A stretch of 32,000 nucleotides of DNA, taken from assembly GCA_003516025.1 (NCBI GenBank), contig CP023991.1, positions 330,001 to 362,000 of the forward strand. Direction: 5' to 3'. The stretch comes from Candidatus Saccharimonadota bacterium. GTDB taxonomy: Bacteria; Patescibacteriota; Saccharimonadia; Saccharimonadales; UBA4665. The translations under genes and the position numbers were made by a program. Below the pieces are notes generated by a model. The model did no database searches and had not been told where the DNA came from. It worked only from the letters and a program-made list of their open reading frames with translations. Shown in pieces: positions 4,223 through 15,754 of this stretch. Each line of letters begins with the position of its first letter. The first letter of the stretch is position 1.

Positions 4223-4551
4223 TGGTAATGAGGCAAGACGCCAGTACCGGCGAAATGGTAGAAGCGCCCGATGACGGCAGCGAGCAGAAAGCGGCTGATC
4301 CCAAAAAACCAATTATGTCGGTTAAAGTGTACGCCCCGTTCCAAGTGTATTTCGAAGGCGATGCCTACAGCGTGACGGCCGCAAACGAGACTGGGCCGTT
4401 CGATATTTTACCGCGCCACCATAACTTTATTTGTATGCTGGTTCCGTGTAACCTAGTCATTAAGACGCCGTACGAAGAGAAAGTTGTCAAGATTTCGCGT
4501 GCCCTGATGCACGTCAAAGCCGAGCGTGTCGTTGTGTTCGTCGACGTTTAG
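4222..4551 (+). CDS. atpC: F-type ATP synthase subunit epsilon (beta-sandwich domain only)
   Basis: Follows atpD with a TAATG overlap. Core MSVKVYAPFQVYFEGDAYSVTAANETGPFDILPRHHNFICMLVPCNLVIK matches the epsilon N-terminal domain pattern. An alternative internal start at ATG 4315 would remove a 31-aa acidic N-extension. Confidence 0.8.
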
Positions 4552-5570
4552 CCAGCGACGAAGTAGGAGAAGCCGAACACCTGGTTGGCCGGAGCAGGGT
4601 TGGCAGTGCAGACGCTAAAGCCCGTGTTAGTGCGCGTAACGTAGTACTGGGTCTGGCCAGCGGCGAGACCAACTGGGCTGATAATGACGTTAGGCGGGGA
4701 AGCGAAGGCTTGCGCGAAGTTTACCGAGATGAAGCAACCGGCAGTCGGGTTGTTGCCGCTGTTAATATTAACAGTACCAACAGTATCGGAACCGTTTACG
4801 GATGCGGTTCCACCGTTGCCAAGCACACCTGTGTTGATGGATGCCCGCTGCGCCGGAGCGCCGGTGAAAGCAATATGGTTTGGTACTTGCAATACGGCGT
4901 TACCGCTCATAATGAGCCGGGTAACGGTAATCTGCGAAGCGCCCATGGGCCCGCTAAAATTACTGGCACCAGATACGTTAACGGTGCTCAGGGTCGTAGT
5001 GCCTTGCATGATGGCATTCTGGGCTACTTGCAGGCTATTTATTTGCGTGTCAGCCAGGTTGGTCTTGCCAGCGACAGTAAGGGTGGCTGCCTGCAGGTCA
5101 CCACCCAGGCGGATGCGGCCGGCAACATCAAGATCTTTTTGTACCAGGAGCTGGCCGGTAAATACGGCGTTTCCCTGCACGGTCAGTGTCTGGGCGGCAT
5201 TACCGACGGTGGCGTCTGAGTTGGCTAGTTGCTTGAGGGCATCAGTCGTCAGCTGTTGAGTGGCGACTTCAGGAGTATCCGGCGCTTTCTTGCTGTTTAA
5301 GAAGCTGACCGCGCTGGTGGCGGCGACGACTACCATAATGAGAATAAAACCGAGTAGATAGACGTCGACTTTGTGCCAGAAAGCTTTGAGCGGATTAACT
5401 TTTTTTGCGGAGCCTTCGGTGGCGGCAGCTTCAAGTGATCCGGTGGCGTCAACCCCCTCCGCGGTCAGCTCTTCGTTGGTCTTTTCCAGAGCATCAGCGG
5501 GCGCGGTTTGAGTTACTCCGATATTCTCAGGAGTTGCGGACGTGTCTTCGGTTGGTTTTTTGTCTTCCAT
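4548..5570 (-). CDS. hypothetical membrane-anchored surface protein with beta-helix-like imperfect repeats
   Basis: 340 aa. Acidic, disordered ~70-aa N-terminus, one TM helix (VYLLGFILIMVVVAATSAVSFL), then a Gly/Thr/Asn/Val-rich region with repeating short-strand patterns (LTVQGNAVFTGQLLVQKDLDVAGRIRLGGDLQAATLTVAGKTNL...). Overlaps the atpC stop convergently by 4 nt. Confidence 0.75.
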   Translation of the reverse strand: MEDKKPTEDTSATPENIGVTQTAPADALEKTNEELTAEGVDATGSLEAAATEGSAKKVNPLKAFWHKVDVYLLGFILIMVVVAATSAVSFLNSKKAPDTPEVATQQLTTDALKQLANSDATVGNAAQTLTVQGNAVFTGQLLVQKDLDVAGRIRLGGDLQAATLTVAGKTNLADTQINSLQVAQNAIMQGTTTLSTVNVSGASNFSGPMGASQITVTRLIMSGNAVLQVPNHIAFTGAPAQRASINTGVLGNGGTASVNGSDTVGTVNINSGNNPTAGCFISVNFAQAFASPPNVIISPVGLAAGQTQYYVTRTNTGFSVCTANPAPANQVFGFSYFVAG

Positions 5571-5652: not shown

Positions 5653-5691
5653 TTGAAATTTGGGCGGGCATCAAGCATACTAAACATAAGC
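5653..5691 (+). promoter_or_regulatory. putative promoter of gene A plus AAACATAAGC box
   Basis: TTGAAA (5653-5658), 17 nt, CATACT (5676-5681), then AAACATAAGC (5682-5691). The palindrome CATAAGCTTATG (5685-5696) contains the ATG start. Confidence 0.5.
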
Positions 5692-5693
5692 TT

Positions 5694-6443
5694 ATGCAAA
5701 AACAAATGATGAGACGGTTTTTACATAGTGCGGCGCTCTCGGTACTTATATGTGTTGGCGCTGTCGGAATGGCGGCCGCGGATACCGCGAGCTCGTCGAA
5801 TTATATGGTGTCTGAGACGCAATTCGGTTCCGGCTCCGCATTGGAACAGTGTAGTGGCAGTTACTGTGCCCGCTCGGCAACCGGCGATTTAGTGAACGGC
5901 CAGGCCAAAAGCGATAATTACGGTGCCCGTTTCGGGTCGGTGACTACGGCAGACCCCTACCTGGAAGTTTATACTAGCGGTGGTTTATCTGATTTGGGGA
6001 CGCTTGACATCGACCGGACCGCCACCGCCACCGCCCAGATAAGTGTCCGCAACTATATGGGCGGCTACGTTATGCAAATTACCGGCCGGCCGCCGTCGCA
6101 GGGCAGCCACGAATTAAAGGCCATGGATAGTGATCCACAGTGTCCCTGTACATCGCAGATGGGGGCCGAGCAATTCGGCATTAATTTTATTGCCAACACT
6201 GCACCATCGGTCGGCGCTAACCCAACACAGGTGCCATCAAATACTTTCAGTTTTGGCCAGGCGGCGACGGATTATGACACGCCGAATCTATTTAAATATG
6301 TTGAAGGTGACATTGTGGCTCAGAGTAATATCAGTAGTGGACAGACCGATTACACGCTTTCAATGATATTCAATGTCTCCAACGTGACACCGGGTGGCCA
6401 GTACACCGGCTCTTACTCGGCAGTGGTGGTTCCGACGTATTAG
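5694..6443 (+). CDS. secreted protein A, smallest member of the locus paralog family (CscB/WxL-like by architecture; hypothetical)
   Basis: 249 aa. Signal peptide MQKQMMRRFLHSAALSVLICVGAVGMAAA/DT. Shares EQFGINF and the C-terminal TPGGQYTGSYSAVVVPTY-stop with B, C and E. Confidence 0.85.
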   Translation: MQKQMMRRFLHSAALSVLICVGAVGMAAADTASSSNYMVSETQFGSGSALEQCSGSYCARSATGDLVNGQAKSDNYGARFGSVTTADPYLEVYTSGGLSDLGTLDIDRTATATAQISVRNYMGGYVMQITGRPPSQGSHELKAMDSDPQCPCTSQMGAEQFGINFIANTAPSVGANPTQVPSNTFSFGQAATDYDTPNLFKYVEGDIVAQSNISSGQTDYTLSMIFNVSNVTPGGQYTGSYSAVVVPTY

Positions 6444-6462
6444 TTCATTAACTGTTAATGAA
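6444..6462 (+). terminator. weak AT-rich palindrome directly after gene A
   Basis: TTCATTAAC-t-GTTAATGAA begins right after the TAG stop. No U-tract follows, so terminator function is doubtful. Confidence 0.25.
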
Positions 6463-6483
6463 CTACTGCTGTGGATAAGTATC

Positions 6484-6512
6484 TTGTTGACACATAACGC
6501 TTATGCTACAAT
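6484..6512 (+). promoter_or_regulatory. putative extended -10 promoter of gene B
   Basis: TTGTTG (6484-6489; alternatively TTGACA at 6487-6492), then TGcTACAAT (6504-6512). GCTTATG lies in the spacer. Confidence 0.55.
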
Positions 6513-6580
6513 CCGCATTGTACCCACAAAAATATAAACAATAAGTCTCAAACCAATATAGAAAGGAGAATCTTTTCTCT

Positions 6581-8248
6581 ATGTATGTAAATAATATTAA
6601 GGAAGCTGTAACGCGCAGTGGGGCATTCGCGATGGCTGTGAGTATGCTGAGCATTCTGGGTATCAGTGCTTTCCCCTCACTGGTATTCGCTAACGCCCTC
6701 AACCCGCTGACAGAGCGTACATTGCTCATGACGAGCTCTGCTCCTGGCTACAATAATACGGACGGTTCCGGCAATGCGACATATGCACCTCCGGGCAGTG
6801 GTCCGAATGGCCAGAAAGCCGGACATAAGTTCAGTTTTAAAGTGAGTACCGACAGTAGCGGCAGTGGTGCTGCGATTGACGGTTTTTCATTCCAGTACTG
6901 TACTACTGCAGCTGGTAACTGTACCTCTCCTGGAAACGACACTGTTGTTGCACCTGGTGATGATCAAACTCCTGGCACTGCCGATGACCGTGTAGATAAT
7001 GCTGCAAATAAAGAGAGTGACCTCAACGTCAGCTATGCTAACCCCCAGGAAGTAACGGCTATTCCGACATCCAACCCAGATGGGTTGGCACTTGTTGATG
7101 CTGATAACAGCGACGGAAATTTCGCGGTACTGTGGGACAGCAATAATGACGGCGTTGACGAACTAAATGCTGGCTGGGAAATGGACGTACAAAACTACGA
7201 AACTCCTAGTGCGGTTACGGTAAAAAACAACTTCATCCGTCTCCGTAAGGCTACTACCGGTTCTGGCAACAGTGCTGCCCTGAAGCCTGCTCCGGGTGTC
7301 AAGATTACCGTAGTCTTCTATGCTACTGATGATAACTTCATTACGAATCCCGGCTCCGGTAACTTTTTCGTCCGGTTGAATACCTACAAGACAAATGTTT
7401 ACACCTCAATGCTACCGAACTCGAACACGAATATCCTCGACGGTGGTGTAACGGTTGCAAATGTCATGACTGATTCAATCCATATCACCACTAAGGTTCT
7501 GGAAACGATGAGCTTCTCAGTCGGTACTGAAAATCCAGATTACCTTCCAGCTGGCGGCGGACAACATGGTCCTTGTGATCCAATTGAGGACAATGATCAA
7601 ATCCAGCTGGGTAACGCCAATGCAGAATCTTCACTGGAAGTAAACACTGCGTATGACGCTAAATCATACTGGCGCCTGTCATCCAACTCCTCCGCTGGCG
7701 CATCAGTGTATTACTCAGGCAGTACGCTCAGCAACACCGTCGGTGATAAGATTGACCCAGCTGGTTTCTTCGTAGCTGATGGTTCCGGAAAAACTGCCTT
7801 CAACGGCACTAACGTGCTCGACTTCGCCCATGCCGGCGGACCAGGTGCGCTTAGTCATCCAGGAATGGAACAATTCGGATTAGCTTTCGACCCAACTGAA
7901 GATCGCGATAACGATGGCGTCGCTGACCTACCTGATGGTAACGTCGGTGAACAAGGCCCAGGCAATGACCTTAAAGGACTGATTATGAGTGACGCCTACA
8001 ACGGTGGCGCAGGTCGTATCAATAAGGAAGTGGTAGATCCCGATGATTCATCTCAAGATCTCCCTATTACGGCTAAGTTCGCTTTCGATCCTTCAAGCCA
8101 GTCAACACCAGCTCTGATTGCTAGCAACACTACTGATGTTGTTGACTGCTCGACCGGTAAGATGCGCTACATTGGTAACATCGCTGCTGCAACACCAGCC
8201 GGTGTATACACCACTAAGATTAACTACCTCGCTGCTCCTCAGTACTAG
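6581..8248 (+). CDS. secreted protein B, large paralog with two DxDxDG-type acidic loops (CscC/WxL-like by architecture; hypothetical)
   Basis: 555 aa. Signal peptide ending SLVFA/NA. AAAGGAGA SD upstream. Family motifs FQYCTTAAGNCTSP, VLETMSFSVG, EQFGLAF and the C-terminal TPAGVYTTKINYLAAPQY-stop. Confidence 0.9.
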   Translation: MYVNNIKEAVTRSGAFAMAVSMLSILGISAFPSLVFANALNPLTERTLLMTSSAPGYNNTDGSGNATYAPPGSGPNGQKAGHKFSFKVSTDSSGSGAAIDGFSFQYCTTAAGNCTSPGNDTVVAPGDDQTPGTADDRVDNAANKESDLNVSYANPQEVTAIPTSNPDGLALVDADNSDGNFAVLWDSNNDGVDELNAGWEMDVQNYETPSAVTVKNNFIRLRKATTGSGNSAALKPAPGVKITVVFYATDDNFITNPGSGNFFVRLNTYKTNVYTSMLPNSNTNILDGGVTVANVMTDSIHITTKVLETMSFSVGTENPDYLPAGGGQHGPCDPIEDNDQIQLGNANAESSLEVNTAYDAKSYWRLSSNSSAGASVYYSGSTLSNTVGDKIDPAGFFVADGSGKTAFNGTNVLDFAHAGGPGALSHPGMEQFGLAFDPTEDRDNDGVADLPDGNVGEQGPGNDLKGLIMSDAYNGGAGRINKEVVDPDDSSQDLPITAKFAFDPSSQSTPALIASNTTDVVDCSTGKMRYIGNIAAATPAGVYTTKINYLAAPQY

Positions 8249-8289
8249 GATATAATTCCTTACTTTTACGCCACATAGTTTGGCAGGAG

Positions 8290-8318
8290 AAAAAGACCCG
8301 GTTTACCGGGTCTTTTTA
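8290..8318 (+). terminator. intrinsic terminator after gene B
   Basis: AAAA-AGACCCGG-TTTA-CCGGGTCT-TTTTAT: an 8-bp GC-rich stem, a tetraloop and a U-tract. A-tract/U-tract symmetry suggests it may work in both directions. Confidence 0.85.
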
Positions 8319-8323
8319 TGCCT

Positions 8324-8353
8324 TAGACAATTCGATGGTTATTCTTGTACAAT
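8324..8353 (+). promoter_or_regulatory. putative promoter of gene C (leaderless)
   Basis: TAGACA (8324-8329), 18 nt, TACAAT (8348-8353). ATG 8360 begins 7 nt after the -10 box. Confidence 0.55.
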
Positions 8354-8359
8354 ACATCT

Positions 8360-9442
8360 ATGCATAAGCTCAATCATGTGAGGGTGAGGGTATTGCCGCA
8401 CCATGTTTTTTGGGCTGAGATGTTGTTGTCTCTGTTCTTCTCGGTAATCGTTTTTCTACCGAGCGTCGACGCGGCCGATGTCTCACGCTTAAGGCTGCGC
8501 AGTTTGTTCATGTATAACCCCAACCCGGGCGTTGTCACGGACTACAAGGTTTCTTTCACATATTCCACGACTACCACTGTCGGATCGGTTGACATGCTAT
8601 TTTGTACAAGCCCTATCCCGGATGATCCGTGTTACGTCCCTGTGGGGCTGGACTTATCTAATGTAAGTATGGGTGTACAGACGGGTGAAACAGGATACGA
8701 TGTCCAGGTCAAATCACCGAACCACATTGTCCTTAGCCGAGCGACGCCAGCTGTGGTAGACGCGGTAGCATCATCTTATACGCTGCATAATGTTAAAAAC
8801 CCGACGGACGATGTCCGGCCTTTCTCAATTCGTTTGAGTACCCATAGCGATAGCGCGGCGAACAATCCCGTTATTGATCTCGGTTCGGTTGTCGGTGGAC
8901 TCAATAATGGGATTTTTATAGAGACACAGGTGCCGCCGACACTCATGTTCTGTCTTGGCCAGGAGGTTTCCGTCGACTGTAGCGATGTAGACGGTGTAAA
9001 TTACCATGATATGGGAAATCTGGCGGCGGACACTACATTAACGGCTCAGTCACAGATGTCGGTAGGTACCAACGCGACTTCGGGGTTTGCTATTACTGTT
9101 AATGGCACCAGTATGAAAGCGGGCAATAATGTGATAGACGCCGTAGCTGCAATACCAACTACCAGTATTACGGGCAAGAACCAGTTCGGAATCAACTTAG
9201 TAAAAAATACCCAACCGGAAGTTGGCGGCGATCCTGACGGTGATGACTCGGTAGCTGCCGCAGCCGCAAATTACGACCAGCCGAACCGTTACTTTTTCCG
9301 AGATGGGGATGTAGTCGCAAGCTCTCCTCATGTCAGTTTATTGAAGCGATTTACAGTCAGCTATATCGTTAATACCGATCCAAACTTACGTGCCGGTGTC
9401 TATAGCACAACGATTACCTACATTTGCAGTGGCCGATTTTGA
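8360..9442 (+). CDS. secreted protein C, paralog of B and E (hypothetical)
   Basis: ORF track begins at TTG 8345. I prefer ATG 8360 because a TACAAT -10 box (8348-8353) lies 6 nt upstream, which fits a leaderless mRNA. Signal peptide ...FFSVIVFLPSVDA/AD. Motifs DYKVSFTYS, LFCTSPIPDDPCYVP, NQFGINL and the C-terminal RAGVYSTTITYICSGRF-stop. Confidence 0.85.
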   Translation: MHKLNHVRVRVLPHHVFWAEMLLSLFFSVIVFLPSVDAADVSRLRLRSLFMYNPNPGVVTDYKVSFTYSTTTTVGSVDMLFCTSPIPDDPCYVPVGLDLSNVSMGVQTGETGYDVQVKSPNHIVLSRATPAVVDAVASSYTLHNVKNPTDDVRPFSIRLSTHSDSAANNPVIDLGSVVGGLNNGIFIETQVPPTLMFCLGQEVSVDCSDVDGVNYHDMGNLAADTTLTAQSQMSVGTNATSGFAITVNGTSMKAGNNVIDAVAAIPTTSITGKNQFGINLVKNTQPEVGGDPDGDDSVAAAAANYDQPNRYFFRDGDVVASSPHVSLLKRFTVSYIVNTDPNLRAGVYSTTITYICSGRF

Positions 9443-9451
9443 TGCTACAAT
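9423..9451 (+). promoter_or_regulatory. putative extended -10 promoter of gene D, overlapping the 3' end of gene C
   Basis: TTTGCA (9423-9428), 17 nt including TGc, TACAAT (9446-9451). Confidence 0.5.
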
Positions 9452-9488
9452 TATGCTTATACTTAAAAGTAACAGTGAGAGAGATAAA

Positions 9489-10535
9489 ATGAAACGTTTA
9501 TTTACGTACGTCAGCAGTGTTACTCTGCTGCTTGCACTTATTGGCAATGTAGTTCCTGCTTCGGCTCAATCGACAGGCTCATCAGGCCTAAGTATTACGC
9601 CCCGCAAAAACCTCACACTAAAACCAGGCGAGTCGACCACTGATAAACTTACTATCGGTAACTTAAGCAAAAACGCGGATTTGGAAGTTAGCCTAAAAGC
9701 TATCGATTTTACTTTCATGAATGAAACGGGCACGCCAAAGTTATTGCTCGGCGAGAATACACAGCAGACAGCGTGGTCAGTTAGGCCGTTTCTGGAATTC
9801 ACTCAATCTGTTGTCGTGCCGGCTGGACAGTCTCGAACCGTTAATTACACGCTAACTATTCCAAAAAACCAGGGTGCCGGTTCTTACTACAGTGCTATCC
9901 AGTATGGTACGGGCGGTACTAATGGAGGAAATGTTAATTTGAGCGCTTCTGGAGTTACACTTGTATTTGTTTCTGTCCCCGGTGTCGTAAAAGAAGACAT
10001 GACACTTAAAAGGTTTGGTGCCTACCAACTAAACAAGGACAATATTACCGGTAGTTACGTTAAGATAGCCACAAATAAGCCAGAACAAGTCGCATTTACA
10101 TTACAAAATAATGGAAATGTTGCAGAAGCTCCCGTTGGCAGCGTAACTGTTAAATATATGTTCGGCAAGAAACAATGGAATATTGACAACGTCAACGAAA
10201 CGTCATCGCTTGCTCTTATCGGCCAAAGCCGTATTTATTTAAATTGTCTAGAATCTCAAGAACAACAGGTGAATGTTGCTGGTAGTGAAGCCAAAAACAA
10301 GACCTGTAAGTCACCAAAATTATGGCCCGGCCGTTACACGGCAACCCTCGATGCCTTCTACGGGCAAAACGGTAACAACACTCATCAGGTATCAGCTACC
10401 GCCAGTTTCTGGTACTTGCCATGGTGGTTCCTTATTACCATAATCGCTCTACTCACCATCATTTCAACCGCAGTACTGCTCATAGTCTATAAGGCAAAAC
10501 GAGCCGCCAGGGGCAAAAGCGCCCGGCGCCGCTAA
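9489..10535 (+). CDS. cell-surface protein D: signal peptide + two beta-rich halves + C-terminal TM anchor (CscA / DUF916-DUF3324-like by architecture)
   Basis: The track ORF starts at 9390, inside gene C. ATG 9489 gives a proper signal peptide (MKRLFTYVSSVTLLLALIGNVVPASA/QS). C-terminal TM helix WWFLITIIALLTIISTAVLLIVY followed by KAKRAARGKSARRR. Clear paralog of F. Confidence 0.85.
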   Translation: MKRLFTYVSSVTLLLALIGNVVPASAQSTGSSGLSITPRKNLTLKPGESTTDKLTIGNLSKNADLEVSLKAIDFTFMNETGTPKLLLGENTQQTAWSVRPFLEFTQSVVVPAGQSRTVNYTLTIPKNQGAGSYYSAIQYGTGGTNGGNVNLSASGVTLVFVSVPGVVKEDMTLKRFGAYQLNKDNITGSYVKIATNKPEQVAFTLQNNGNVAEAPVGSVTVKYMFGKKQWNIDNVNETSSLALIGQSRIYLNCLESQEQQVNVAGSEAKNKTCKSPKLWPGRYTATLDAFYGQNGNNTHQVSATASFWYLPWWFLITIIALLTIISTAVLLIVYKAKRAARGKSARRR

Positions 10536-10542
10536 CAAAAGT

Positions 10543-10569
10543 AAAAGGGGACTGTAAAAGTCCCCTTTT
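10543..10569 (+). terminator. intrinsic terminator after gene D
   Basis: AAAA-GGGGACT-GTAAA-AGTCCCC-TTTT. Confidence 0.85.
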
Positions 10570-10588
10570 CGCATAAACAGAATAAGGT

Positions 10589-10604
10589 TAGAATAAACAT
10601 AAGC
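10589..10604 (+). promoter_or_regulatory. putative -10 box of gene G plus AAACATAAGC box
   Basis: TAGAAT (10589-10594) followed directly by AAACATAAGC (10595-10604), then TATG with the start at 10606. No convincing -35 box. Confidence 0.45.
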
Positions 10605-10605
10605 T

Positions 10606-11523
10606 ATGAGGTTTGAAAAGCGCATCATTTTGTTACTGCAAGCTAGCATCCTGGCTTGTTCGTGCTTAGTGGCTTTCGCCGTACCGCAGGCTAGCGCTGC
10701 CATAAACAAAATACCCGAACCTGATCCCAAACCTAATTCATTCGGCCTTGAGGCCACTAAAACGCAGCCGGCGCCAACTCAGGGCGCGACTATATCGGTG
10801 CCCGGCAGCGGCGCGTCGTTTAGTACCTCGCCTGTAACGGTTAGCGGTATCTGTCCGAAGGGCTTGCTGGTACAGGTATACAACAACGGCGTGCTGGCGG
10901 GTTCCATAGACTGCGCCAACGGCAGCTTTAGTATCCAAGTAACACTCTATAATGGCACAAACGAATTAACGGCGACCGTTTTCGATGATCTTGACCAGGC
11001 GGGGCCGGAGTCAAACAAGGTGAGCGTTAGCTATAATAACGCGTCCATCACGGCATTTGGCCAACTTATTACGCTTACCAGCGCCTTTGGCCGTCGGGCT
11101 GCCGATCCGGGAACGCAGCTTGTCTGGCCACTGGTACTTTCGGGTGGCACTGGGCCGTACGCCTTTAGTATTGACTGGGGAGATGGCACTTCGCCTGAGC
11201 TTAAAAGCCAGGCACTGTCCGGGGAGGTTCGAATATCGCATACCTATAAGCAAGCTGGTGTGTACCATGTGATCGTTAAAGTAACCGATGCCAACGGTGT
11301 CAGCGCTTTCTTACAGTTAACGGCCGTAGCGAATGGTAAGGTAACTGCCGCCGAGACGACGGCAGCTAACACCAAAACCGTGGTCGTGACGAAAATGCTG
11401 TGGATTCCGGTGATCGTGGCAGCTATCATGCTGGTACCTGCGTTCTGGCTGGGCCGGCGTAGCGAACTGAAGAGCCTGCATAAGCGGCTGCAACATGATT
11501 TAGATACCTATAAAGATTTGTAA
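10606..11523 (+). CDS. membrane-anchored Ig-like/PKD-domain surface protein G
   Basis: 305 aa. Signal peptide ...VAFAVPQASA/AI. PKD-type block YAFSIDWGDGTSPE...ISHTYKQAGVYHVIVKVTDANG. C-terminal TM helix MLWIPVIVAAIMLVPAFWLG and a short charged tail. Confidence 0.85.
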   Translation: MRFEKRIILLLQASILACSCLVAFAVPQASAAINKIPEPDPKPNSFGLEATKTQPAPTQGATISVPGSGASFSTSPVTVSGICPKGLLVQVYNNGVLAGSIDCANGSFSIQVTLYNGTNELTATVFDDLDQAGPESNKVSVSYNNASITAFGQLITLTSAFGRRAADPGTQLVWPLVLSGGTGPYAFSIDWGDGTSPELKSQALSGEVRISHTYKQAGVYHVIVKVTDANGVSAFLQLTAVANGKVTAAETTAANTKTVVVTKMLWIPVIVAAIMLVPAFWLGRRSELKSLHKRLQHDLDTYKDL

Positions 11524-11530
11524 AAAAGTA

Positions 11531-11560
11531 TTGCGCATCATAACATAAGCATGATAAAAT
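11531..11560 (+). promoter_or_regulatory. putative extended -10 promoter of gene E
   Basis: TTGCGC (11531-11536), 18 nt, TGaTAAAAT (11552-11560). TAACATAAGC (11541-11550) lies in the spacer. An AT-rich leader of about 55 nt carrying an SD follows. Confidence 0.45.
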
Positions 11561-11621
11561 CTACTCGTTAACCATAAAAACCAAAAATATTAAAATAAAA
11601 TTAAAAAGAGGGATTAAACAT

Positions 11622-12785
11622 ATGAAATCCATAGGGATCTTCAACCGCCGCTCCAGCTCTCTCGTAGCCGCAACGGCCATGCTCCTGTCGGTCGTGGCGC
11701 CGAGTCTGGTATTTTCCAGCGCGTCAGCCGACCAGCTGACCGGCCGGAAGATAGAATTGAGCAGTTCCGCTGCCGGCGCGACCGACGTAGACTATAAAGT
11801 AACATTCACCGCTACTGAATCAGCGGCAGGATATGTCATTGATTTTTGTAGCAACAGCCCGTTGCTTGGTATGAGTTGTGTGCCACCCACCGGCATGTCC
11901 ACGGCTAGCCCTACTGCTTCAGGCGCTACAGTTGTTGACGGTCCTGCTGCACCTACAACAAACACCAGCTTAGAAATTACACAAGCTATTACGGCCGGTC
12001 CTGTGACTACAGAAGTAAGCGGCATAACCAATCCAACGACAGCCGGTCCATTGTACGCTCGTATCTATACCTATGAGGACATGGCTAATGCGGCCGTGTC
12101 ATCCAATCCAGGAACTACTGAAGACAATGGCGCAGTCGCACTGTCAATAACTAACAAAATTGGCGTATCCGCTGCCGTCCTGGAAACTATGACTTTCTGC
12201 GTATCTAAGACAGATACATCTTCGTCAGGCCATGAGAATTGCCTCGATCTAGGCGATGCCGAAGATTTGCCGAATATTCAGCTCGGTGAAGAGAGTGGCG
12301 GCGTCAAGGCGCTGCAAACTGGTATCGTAAGTAAGGGTACTATATGGACTCAAATTTCTACTAACGCCGTAGCAGGCGCCGTAGTAAGCATGAAGATTAA
12401 CAATCAATGCGGTGGCTTGAAATTGGCGGGCGTTAGTTCTCCTTGTAGCATTGCTCCTGCAATCAGCGGAAGTATTGTAGACAACGGCCCGGCTAAATTC
12501 GGTGTCAAAACCGGCACTGCGGTGGCTTCAGCGGACATCACTACCGCCCAGGGTACATACCAGCCTGCGACAGGCAGCGGTTATGGTGACAGTTCGTACT
12601 TCATGGGATTTGTTGACGGTGACGACGGTGTCACTAGCACGTATGGCGACCCTGTTCTTGACACCAACGGTGCTCCAATCAACAACATGAACATGCCGCT
12701 GGAATTTGCTGCTACGATTACTAACCAGACTCCAGCTGGCCTGTACTCGGCAGACCTCAATATGATTGCATCGGGTACATTCTAG
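11622..12785 (+). CDS. secreted protein E, paralog of B and C (hypothetical)
   Basis: 387 aa. AGAGGGA SD about 10 nt upstream. Signal peptide ...PSLVFSSASA/DQ. Motifs VDYKVTFTAT, DFCSNSPLLGMSCVPP, VLETMTFCVS, AKFGVKT and the C-terminal TPAGLYSADLNMIASGTF-stop. Confidence 0.9.
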   Translation: MKSIGIFNRRSSSLVAATAMLLSVVAPSLVFSSASADQLTGRKIELSSSAAGATDVDYKVTFTATESAAGYVIDFCSNSPLLGMSCVPPTGMSTASPTASGATVVDGPAAPTTNTSLEITQAITAGPVTTEVSGITNPTTAGPLYARIYTYEDMANAAVSSNPGTTEDNGAVALSITNKIGVSAAVLETMTFCVSKTDTSSSGHENCLDLGDAEDLPNIQLGEESGGVKALQTGIVSKGTIWTQISTNAVAGAVVSMKINNQCGGLKLAGVSSPCSIAPAISGSIVDNGPAKFGVKTGTAVASADITTAQGTYQPATGSGYGDSSYFMGFVDGDDGVTSTYGDPVLDTNGAPINNMNMPLEFAATITNQTPAGLYSADLNMIASGTF

Positions 12786-12816
12786 AAAAATCCGCCAGCC
12801 CACGGAACTCATTTAC

Positions 12817-12826
12817 AAACATAAGC
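12817..12826 (+). repeat. third exact copy of the AAACATAAGC box, upstream of gene F
   Basis: ATTTAC-AAACATAAGC-GTG. The same 10-mer occurs at 5682-5691 and 10595-10604, each time right after a -10-like hexamer and right before a start codon. Confidence 0.5.
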
Positions 12827-12874
12827 GTGTCTGTTAAGGTAAGTACAAGTAACCACTATGGGAGTTAAAAACAA

Positions 12875-13924
12875 GTGATAAAACAAACACTACGGGTTGC
12901 ATTGTTCGCGACAGTGCTTTGTGGGCTTGTAGCTACGTCCAGTGTGTCTCCTGTCTTTGCCGCGACGACCGCTCCTGCCAAAGCCAAGACGACGCCGCCT
13001 AATACCAGCACTAACACGCTTAAAATATCCCCTATCCGCACCGAAGTAACGATCATTGCAGGACAGACGAGTACCGTTAAGACAATTGTTACGAATATTA
13101 CCGGCAGTCCGATTGTGGTTGAACCGATTGAAAACGACTTCGTGGCCGGTGACGAAAATGGTACGCCAGCCCTCATCCTTGACCAGAACAGCTACGCCCC
13201 GACCCACAGCCTGAAGCGTTTTATGGTACCGCTTAAGAATGTGACGATTAATCCGGGCGAAGCCAAAGAAATCCCTGTAACTATTACCGTTCCAAAGAAT
13301 GCGCAGGCTGGTGGTTACTTCGGCGCCGTGCGCTTTGCTCCCGCCAACACCAGCGGTAGCCAGCAAGTCAACCTCAGCCCGAGCGTTGCCTCCCTGATTC
13401 TTCTGACCGTTCCCGGTCCGACCACCGAACAACTGAACCTGACGAACTTCGACATCCAACAAGATGGCAGCTCCGGCTCCAATTTCCGCACGCCGGAAAA
13501 TCTTCAGGCTTTCATCCGCTTTGAAAATAAGGGTAATGTACAACAGGCACCCGTCGGCCAGATCAACGTTAAAAAGGGCAGTAAAGTCGTGTACACCGCC
13601 GACTTTAACCAGACCGATCCGAAAGCCAACGTCCTGCCCGACAGCGCCCGCCGCTGGACCGTTCCGCTGAAAAAGCTTGGGAAATTTGGTAAATATACCG
13701 TCAGCGCCACCTTTACCTACGGCAGCAAAAACGAAAGCATTGATGTCACTAAGACCGTTTGGATTGTGCCAACGACCTACATCTACGCTGGCATCATTGC
13801 AATTGTTGTCCTGGTAGCCATCGTTGGTGGCTTCATCCTCTTCCTTAAGGGCTACAAGCGCCGCCTGTTGGGTGGCTCATCCCGCTCCGGCCGCGGTGGC
13901 CGTAATAATTACCGCCGCCGCTAG
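12875..13924 (+). CDS. cell-surface protein F: paralog of D (CscA / DUF916-DUF3324-like by architecture)
   Basis: 349 aa. GTG start with GGAG SD 10 nt upstream. Signal peptide ...SSVSPVFA/AT. C-terminal TM helix YAGIIAIVVLVAIVGGFILFL followed by an Arg/Gly-rich tail (RRLLGGSSRSGRGGRNNYRRR). Multiple conserved blocks shared with D. Confidence 0.9.
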   Translation: MIKQTLRVALFATVLCGLVATSSVSPVFAATTAPAKAKTTPPNTSTNTLKISPIRTEVTIIAGQTSTVKTIVTNITGSPIVVEPIENDFVAGDENGTPALILDQNSYAPTHSLKRFMVPLKNVTINPGEAKEIPVTITVPKNAQAGGYFGAVRFAPANTSGSQQVNLSPSVASLILLTVPGPTTEQLNLTNFDIQQDGSSGSNFRTPENLQAFIRFENKGNVQQAPVGQINVKKGSKVVYTADFNQTDPKANVLPDSARRWTVPLKKLGKFGKYTVSATFTYGSKNESIDVTKTVWIVPTTYIYAGIIAIVVLVAIVGGFILFLKGYKRRLLGGSSRSGRGGRNNYRRR

Positions 13925-13940
13925 CCTCCAGCTGTTCCGC

Positions 13941-13972
13941 AAACCCTCTCACATTGCAGGAGAGGGTTTTTT
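13941..13972 (+). terminator. intrinsic terminator after gene F
   Basis: AAA-CCCTCTC-ACATTGCAG-GAGAGGG-TTTTTT. Confidence 0.85.
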
Positions 13973-15301: not shown

Positions 15302-15754
15302 GTGCGTACTCGCTCCAACAAGATCCAGCTCGTGACCATCGGGCTCCTGGCGTTCGCCATGGTGCTCACCGCGCTGTTCGGCCCGTCCACGTCTGCGGCT
15401 CCGGTCCAGGACAACGGCGTCTCGGCCAGCGACCTCGCCGCCGGCGACATCTCCGACAACGTGGTCGACTCGCAGCTCGGTGGCACCAACCTCGGCAGTC
15501 CCGACACCGACACCGTGGCATCCAGCCTCGTGCGGATGTCCTACTGCGGCATGCGCAACGGACGCATCCTCATCGGCGGCTGGGGGGCCTTCACCTACCG
15601 GCTCGACGCCAGCAGCCTCAAGCCCGCCAGCATGAAGTACGGCCAGGTCTACAACTTCACCGTGGACACCAACTCGTTCGTGGCCTACCACGTGGCCTAC
15701 GCGCCGCGCGCCGGTGTCCTGGACATCCCGTCCTGCCGGCGGATCGGGGCCTGA
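15302..15754 (+). CDS. small secreted protein of unknown function on a high-GC island (putatively horizontally acquired)
   Basis: 150 aa. GTG start with AGGGGGA SD 6 nt upstream. Sec-type signal peptide (IGLLAFAMVLTALFGPSTSA/AP). Only 9 of 150 sense codons end in A or T. Mature part has 2 Cys. I recognise no family. Confidence 0.75.
   Translation: MRTRSNKIQLVTIGLLAFAMVLTALFGPSTSAAPVQDNGVSASDLAAGDISDNVVDSQLGGTNLGSPDTDTVASSLVRMSYCGMRNGRILIGGWGAFTYRLDASSLKPASMKYGQVYNFTVDTNSFVAYHVAYAPRAGVLDIPSCRRIGA

Follow-up and report, generated by a model that had tools for sequence, protein, structure and literature searches.

A probable pam-type pilus operon in a Candidatus Saccharimonadota genome and the relationship of its chaperones to WxLIP/CscA proteins

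The stretch of DNA analyzed here, in the following called the window, comprises 32,000 nucleotides (nt) of a Candidatus Saccharimonadota genome (contig CP023991.1, positions 330,001 to 362,000, forward strand). Between positions 5694 and 13924 it carries seven plus-strand open reading frames (ORFs), all of which encode exported proteins. We find that this locus is very probably an orthologue of the pam operon, building the Pam pilus of the Candidate Phyla Radiation (CPR) type, and that its best-supported function is that of an usher-less, Sec-dependent, chaperone-assisted pilus assembled by donor-strand exchange. A first-pass annotation, made from the sequence alone, had instead proposed an uncharacterized host-attachment or envelope-scaffold apparatus with an architecture similar to that of the Csc/WxL clusters. 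While the underlying observation is confirmed, its interpretation is only partly supported: a donor-strand-exchange pilus is better supported than a wall-bound complex of the Csc type, and the apparatus is not uncharacterized, since the pam operon was described in 2026 together with cryo-electron microscopy (cryo-EM) structures of its filaments (Troman et al., bioRxiv 10.64898/2026.03.03.709456) and is modelled in NCBIfam. Because the Pam system is thus already known from both sources, the novelty of the locus is low to moderate. The sole element that goes beyond the published account is the homology of the Pam chaperones to WxLIP/CscA; the preprint never mentions WxL or DUF916.

Identity of the locus and its pilin subunits

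The seven genes are listed below, with the letters of the first-pass annotation, the Pam names assigned here and protein lengths in amino acids (aa).

5694-6443, plus strand: A, PamT, 249 aa; predicted single-domain tip pilin with a signal peptide and a truncated immunoglobulin (Ig)-like C-domain, without an anchor
6581-8248, plus strand: B, PamA-type large major pilin, 555 aa; N-domain with an insertion, followed by a Pam C-domain
8360-9442, plus strand: C, PamE-type minor pilin, 360 aa counted from the ATG
9489-10535, plus strand: D, PamD, putative chaperone, 348 aa from the ATG; membrane-anchored, two Ig domains, WxLIP/PapD-like fold
10606-11523, plus strand: G, PamR, 305 aa; RbmA-like predicted tether with PKD/Ig domains and a C-terminal transmembrane (TM) helix
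11622-12785, plus strand: E, PamB-type small major pilin, 387 aa
12875-13924, plus strand: F, PamC, 349 aa; second putative membrane-anchored chaperone, paralogue of PamD

The start of C is uncertain (TTG 8345, 8360 or 8393, the last being the choice of an independent gene call), and D has an alternative GTG start at 9390.

The assignment is based in the first place on family models of NCBIfam release 20, whose names derive from Troman et al. Hereby, A scores 293.4 bits against the equivalog model NF058579 ('CPR-type pilus protein PamT', cut-off 240) and G reaches 386 bits against the equivalog model NF058578 ('pilus system RbmA-like protein PamR', cut-off 300). Both A (150 bits) and C (151.6 bits) pass the cut-off of 55 of the pilin C-domain model NF058581 ('Pam pilus system pilin subunit'). 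In addition, the gene order in the window, T-A-E-D-R-B-C, is the exact mirror of the accession series pamC-pamB-pamR-pamD-pamE-pamA-pamT of Candidatus Mycosynbacter amalyticus JR1 (bioRxiv 10.64898/2026.03.03.709456), which identifies A as PamT, B as PamA, C as PamE, D as PamD, G as PamR, E as PamB and F as PamC. The preprint reports cryo-EM structures of two M. amalyticus filaments with the subunits PamA (55 kDa) and PamB (39 kDa), supported by mass spectrometry; in both filaments a linker strand fills the truncated Ig-like C-domain by donor-strand exchange. Two disulphide pairs were reported for PamA and three for PamB, which fits the four cysteines of mature B and the six of mature E. In Table S1 of the same preprint a 119-kDa protein (QHN42421.1) is labelled pamC, while a 36.5-kDa protein encoded beside pamB (QHN43268.1) is merely called 'hypothetical'; the entries were apparently mislabelled.

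According to hydropathy analysis the N-terminus of all seven proteins is first basic, then hydrophobic and leads up to an AxA-type site. At the C-terminus only D (residues 315-333), F (306-324, with an Arg-rich tail) and G (259-277) have a hydrophobic helix, in each case with a basic tail behind it, while A, B, C and E are soluble and lack such a helix. D and F are paralogues (27% identity, E=4e-30). The exported nature of all seven products, the anchorless character of four of them and the shared architecture of D and F were hence correctly recognized initially, as was G as a PKD protein with a C-terminal TM helix (Pfam PKD domain, 33.1 bits, cut-off 23.5). With exported subunits next to membrane-anchored partners, the notion that the locus encodes a specialized surface apparatus in a reduced epibiont holds as well. 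For the window copy, orthology, protein topology, a common C-domain, the chaperone fold and conserved synteny are thus observed.

The subunits A, B, C and E have no match in Pfam at E<=1. To compare them, C-domain alignments were built for each pilin family from 80 related loci (see below). Homology extends across all pairs of the four families (hhalign E=1e-36 to 1.3e-10), whereby the PamA family aligns with the other three at E=4.7e-21 to 7.3e-16 and the PamB family with those of PamE, PamA and PamT at E=6.5e-14, 7.3e-16 and 1.3e-10, respectively. At the level of single proteins, the C-domain of C (PamE) shares 35% identity with PamT (E=2.5e-17), and its N-domain is related to that of E (PamB; E=2.6e-6). 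The last strand is nearly invariant across 278 pilin C-domains from the 80 loci: glycine occupies position -15 in 99% and tyrosine position -13 in 97%, and the terminal residue is phenylalanine or tyrosine in 99.6%. An AlphaFold2 (AF2) model of PamT is confident over residues 85-249, and its list of fold matches is dominated by donor-strand subunits, namely TasA, the PapG pilin domain, PapA, CsuA/B, FimA/G, CfaB and Caf1. PDB sequence searches with B, E, the PamT profile and the chaperone profile gave nothing useful and recovered neither the Pam entries 25PZ and 25QA nor the WxLIP entries.

Several points weigh against the assignment as a Pam pilus operon. B (48.2 bits) and E (29.5 bits) stay below the curated cut-off of 55 of NF058581, and the fold matches of PamT to pilins are weak (PDB E=3.5e-3 to 0.1, TM-score about 0.4-0.5). 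Moreover, even Troman et al. derived the chaperone function, the order of the subunits and the PamR tether from AlphaFold, and filament formation was shown in M. amalyticus, the window copy being covered here by sequence analysis and single-chain models. As regards the first of these points, B and E can be considered genuine Pam pilins despite their sub-threshold hidden Markov model scores, because the four C-domain families are mutually homologous.

The PKD/Ig domains of G, its NCBIfam designation as RbmA-like and the appearance of RbmA among the fold matches of D could also point to an envelope or biofilm-matrix scaffold, in which G, with its likeness to RbmA, and the Ig-like proteins would assemble into a surface lattice or matrix instead of discrete pili. 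We judge this to be very improbable, as a tip pilin, major pilins, chaperones and a tether make up a typical fibre-assembly set, and pam filaments of M. amalyticus were isolated and solved. Furthermore, PamR is of very low abundance in M. amalyticus (rank 631; bioRxiv 10.64898/2026.03.03.709456), unlike a matrix protein.

Relationship of the chaperones to WxLIP/CscA

The first-pass annotation compared D and F with CscA, a protein combining DUF916 and DUF3324. Indeed, both D (24.2 bits) and F (23.4 bits) match PF06030 (WxLIP_PGBD, formerly DUF916) best of all Pfam families, albeit below the gathering score of 27.3. The same family is matched by 78 of 94 chaperone relatives (36/40 close and 42/54 distant ones; best E=7.3e-9). 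The DUF3324 family PF11797 is matched neither by D and F at E<=1 nor by the relatives at E<=0.01.

Profile-profile comparison gives a clearer picture. Aligned with a WxLIP profile of 33 Bacillota DUF916+DUF3324 proteins, the joint PamC/PamD profile yields an hhalign probability of 98.9% (E=1.4e-17) over 222 columns. The N-domains alone align at E=5.7e-13, compared to E=0.1 and 0.26 for cross-domain controls, so that homology of the chaperone N-domain to WxLIP is well supported. Domain 2 aligns only weakly with the WxLIP DUF3324 domain (E=0.011); the full-length hhalign alignment and the Foldseek superposition with WxLIP span both domains. The AF2 model of D (mean predicted local distance difference test score 79.5) shows two beta-sandwich domains and a C-terminal helix. 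In a Foldseek search of the PDB its top matches are the Enterococcus faecium WxLIP structures 9i1y (E=8.5e-11) and 9i25, the latter a complex with a long WxL protein, followed by CfaA (E=5e-9), FimC, CsuC, DraB and FaeE. WxLIP shares the topology of D and F, with a signal peptide, two Ig domains, a C-terminal TM helix and a basic tail (PMC10599100). D and F are thus true homologues of WxLIP/CscA.

The comparison with classical chaperone-usher systems, for which small E. coli K-12 alignments were used, turned out differently. None of the 94 chaperone relatives matches PapD_N or PapD_C (PF00345/PF02753), and the PamC/PamD profile aligns with E. coli FimC/SfmC/YadV only at E=0.15. Likewise, no sequence-level link connects the Pam C-domains to E. 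coli chaperone-usher pilins (hhalign E=0.1-0.75); kinship of either component to the classical chaperones or pilins is undetectable by sequence. In view of the WxLIP and FimC/SfmC/YadV comparisons, the Pam chaperones are by sequence WxLIP relatives first and PapD-like in fold only. The idea that the locus encodes a classical chaperone-usher or sortase-dependent pilus, which draws on the chaperone-usher chaperones and pilins among the fold matches, hence merits almost no credence. The usher family is matched neither by the seven proteins in Pfam, the largest of which has 555 aa, nor by the other large window ORFs scanned, and D and F are TM-anchored, not soluble. With respect to a sortase-dependent pilus, the seven proteins contain neither an LPxTG sorting signal nor paired WxL motifs, and no sortase was found among the larger window ORFs scanned, in agreement with what had been noted from the sequence at the outset.

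The kinship to WxLIP/CscA raises the question of whether the locus encodes a Csc/WxL-type surface complex after all, i.e. a static adhesive or polysaccharide-binding complex without a polymeric fibre, in which A, B, C and E are held non-covalently by the WxLIP-like D and F. Apart from the homology and the common topology of the anchors, the placement of subunit genes ahead of an anchor gene, as in WxL clusters, speaks for such a complex. The subunits do not: they match the Pam pilin models and not WxL. A WxL-domain identity of A, B, C and E was rejected because none matches WxL in Pfam at E<=1 and the hhalign comparison of each pilin family with 14 WxL proteins from annotated plasmid clusters gives E=0.03-0.46. 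With the C-domains of all families pooled, E is 0.23. The alignable part is confined to the last strand, which is in register but not significant (G-x-Y-T-T-x-I-x-Y in Pam, Y-x-T-T-L-T-W in WxL), and no WxL chain occurs within the top 50 PDB fold matches of the PamT model. In addition, the locus contains no LPXTG protein, and in M. amalyticus PamA and PamB, which hold the operon positions of B and E, form filaments in cryo-EM. We thus regard a Csc/WxL-type complex as unlikely and retain the Pam pilus. From the initially proposed Csc/WxL parallel the relationship between the anchors stands, while significant similarity of the subunits to WxL is lacking.

The relationship between the anchors might nevertheless extend to function. 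According to an AlphaFold prediction, a hairpin strand of WxLIP completes the beta-sandwich of WxL proteins (PMC10599100), which is the same principle as proposed for PamC and PamD. We tentatively consider that PamC/PamD and WxLIP/CscA could form one family of membrane-anchored, usher-independent chaperones in single-membrane envelopes, which would make Pam pili and Csc/WxL clusters sister systems, a possibility to which we give somewhat less than even weight. Common ancestry and a common mechanism of the Pam and WxL subunits are not well supported here. If the proposal is true, WxL proteins would be bound through donor-strand complementation, with strand exchange as a possible mode of their assembly, and the chaperone family would stand between the surface complexes of Gram-positive bacteria and the chaperone-usher pili of Gram-negative ones. 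In any case, the homology links a pilus of CPR bacteria with a Gram-positive surface system that is widespread but poorly understood, and gives a testable idea on how WxL proteins are handled.

Conservation, modularity and transcription signals

To evaluate how far the arrangement is conserved, 80 related loci were collected by a profile search with the chaperone family among GTDB species representatives, the best match being 63% identical. Nearly all derive from metagenome-assembled genomes (MAGs) of Saccharimonadia. The order T-A-E-D-R-B-C recurs in 45 of them, most others being contig-truncated versions; since the order recurs in this many independent Saccharimonadia loci, the arrangement is not due to chance. 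In most related loci ATP synthase genes and a divergent gene for a 340-aa membrane protein, the latter adjoining PamT, are located upstream. Six typical pam loci (our numbers L047, L049, L067, L081, L012 and L057) reside on MAGs labelled Chloroflexi, Dongiaceae, Nevskiaceae, Chlamydiae or Parcubacteria; these off-group labels are most likely binning or labelling errors and not a sign of spread outside Saccharimonadia.

PamB and PamC are jointly absent from 12 of the 80 loci, where PamR abuts mnmA (gaps of 14-85 nt in 9/12). Because the two are lost together, we distinguish a T-A-E-D-R core from a separable pilin-plus-chaperone module B-C. This substantiates the two modules recognized at first sight and fits the pairings PamB:PamC and PamT/PamA:PamD predicted for M. 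amalyticus in the supplement of the Pam preprint (bioRxiv 10.64898/2026.03.03.709456). The one-module loci are L061, L065-L069, L071, L073, L074 and L080-L082. Two further loci contain two PamA copies and three show an interleaved order such as T-A-D-B-E-C-B-R (among L064, L076, L075, L077 and L078). Hereby, the operon described here shows conservation of the system across Saccharimonadia and the existence of a one-module core form. Pam pili represent a pilus class confined to CPR bacteria and are probably the means by which these ultrasmall parasites first reach their hosts.

Three strong plus-strand terminators, as counted initially, each a hairpin with a T-run, follow B, D and F:

8290-8317, plus strand: intrinsic terminator after PamA; hairpin GACCCGG-TTTA-CCGGGTC followed by T5, seen in RNA folding of the B-C spacer
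10543-10569: palindromic terminator after PamD; hairpin with A/T runs on both sides
about 13939-13972, plus strand: intrinsic terminator closing the locus after PamC; CCCTCTC...GAGAGGG followed by T6

The further claim that nearly every gene has its own promoter-like element holds for part of the locus. Sigma-70-like sites are enriched (18 in the region, compared to 9.5 ± 3.3 in shuffled sequences), and A, C, D and E are preceded by promoter-like sites, while the scan flagged none for B, G or F.

The 9-mer AACATAAGC occurs in four exact copies, all on the plus strand (5683-5691, 10596-10604, 11542-11550 and 12818-12826). All four are located in spacers between pam genes, and the rest of the 32 kb contains none, with about 0.24 exact copies expected from a uniform-base estimate. 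Before PamT and PamR the repeat follows a -10-like box and precedes the ATG, and a Shine-Dalgarno sequence is lacking. Its placement suggests either a very short leader or a common regulatory site. Across the 80 related loci, 29 copies are found versus about 10.5 expected.

Outside the locus, the immediate upstream neighbour is the following gene:

4548-5570, minus strand: tail fibre-like neighbour; 340-aa membrane protein, divergent from PamT, outside 5694-13924

This protein, which corresponds to the 'tail fibre-like protein' of the Pam preprint, is acidic at its N-terminus and contains a single TM helix and an ectodomain rich in beta structure. Its Pfam matches are weak (bactofilin, H-type lectin) and PHROG gives none; it is a possible Pam accessory. 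ATP synthase alpha, gamma, beta and epsilon are encoded by upstream window ORFs, and the preprint likewise notes ATP synthase and tail-fibre-like genes beside the pam operon (bioRxiv 10.64898/2026.03.03.709456). Downstream, the window ORFs include MnmA, AlaRS, an FtsA-like protein, YceG, a LysM-CHAP protein and Obg. Between mnmA and alaS lies a 150-aa ORF (15302-15754, plus strand), which has a signal-like N-terminus, matches no family and is also called as a gene in an independent assembly.

Proposed assembly and comparison with known systems

The preprint assigns PamC and PamD as membrane-anchored chaperones, PamE as minor pilin, PamT as tip and PamR as tether, using AlphaFold and Foldseek (bioRxiv 10.64898/2026.03.03.709456). 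Along these lines, all seven proteins would be exported via Sec. PamD and PamC, two-domain Ig-like chaperones held at the membrane by their C-terminal helix, would cap the groove of the pilin C-domain by donor-strand complementation, with PamD probably serving module 1 (PamT, PamA and PamE) and PamC serving PamB. The chaperone strand would then be swapped for the linker strand of the next pilin. In the resulting linear filament PamT would form the tip, followed by stretches of PamB and PamA and then by PamE. The N-terminal strand of PamR could finally enter the last subunit, its helix tethering the fibre to the membrane. As there is no outer membrane, no usher should be needed. The filaments may make the first contact with the host bacterium.

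The closest known system is the pam operon of M. amalyticus JR1, which has the same seven components in the same order, with the same sizes and topology and with flanking ATP synthase and tail-fibre-like genes. Differences are found on the PamC side, where mnmA and alaS follow in the window whereas CorB/MFS (major facilitator superfamily) genes are described for JR1, and at residue 356 of B, which is threonine in the window and the glycosylated Ser356 in JR1 PamA. The predicted protein masses are also slightly unlike those of JR1, although start codons may differ. The window operon probably belongs to a genome other than that of the published JR1 strain.

The WxL/Csc clusters of Bacillota (WxLIP = CscA = DUF916+DUF3324; WxL proteins = CscB/CscC) possess a homologous membrane-anchored protein with two Ig domains, whereas Pam is found in CPR bacteria. 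In both systems genes for anchorless exported subunits precede the anchor gene, and in both the anchor protein is predicted to complete the subunit beta-sandwich with one of its own strands. In contrast to WxL/Csc, the Pam subunits are not detectably WxL, and the locus is devoid of the LPXTG protein CscD and of a detected sortase. Pam subunits polymerize into filaments in M. amalyticus, while WxL proteins are described as wall-bound and not polymeric (PMC10599100). Three Enterococcus/Bacillus plasmid WxL clusters (L083, L084 and L089) encode a large adhesin, a small LPXTG protein, three WxL proteins, WxLIP and sometimes a class A sortase, in a fixed order that matches the pattern of Pam module 1 with subunits ahead of the anchor.

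With the chaperone-usher pili (Fim/Pap, CFA/I, Csu) the Pam system has in common the two-domain Ig-like chaperone fold and donor-strand exchange, the latter known for Pam from M. amalyticus. In both, the Ig-like domain of the pilins is incomplete, and their conserved C-terminal strand ends in an aromatic residue. The Pam system differs from these pili in that it has neither an usher nor an outer membrane and its chaperones are TM-anchored. Furthermore, the Pam pilins of M. amalyticus consist of two domains and use the inter-domain linker as donor strand, giving rise to linear, uncoiled fibres.

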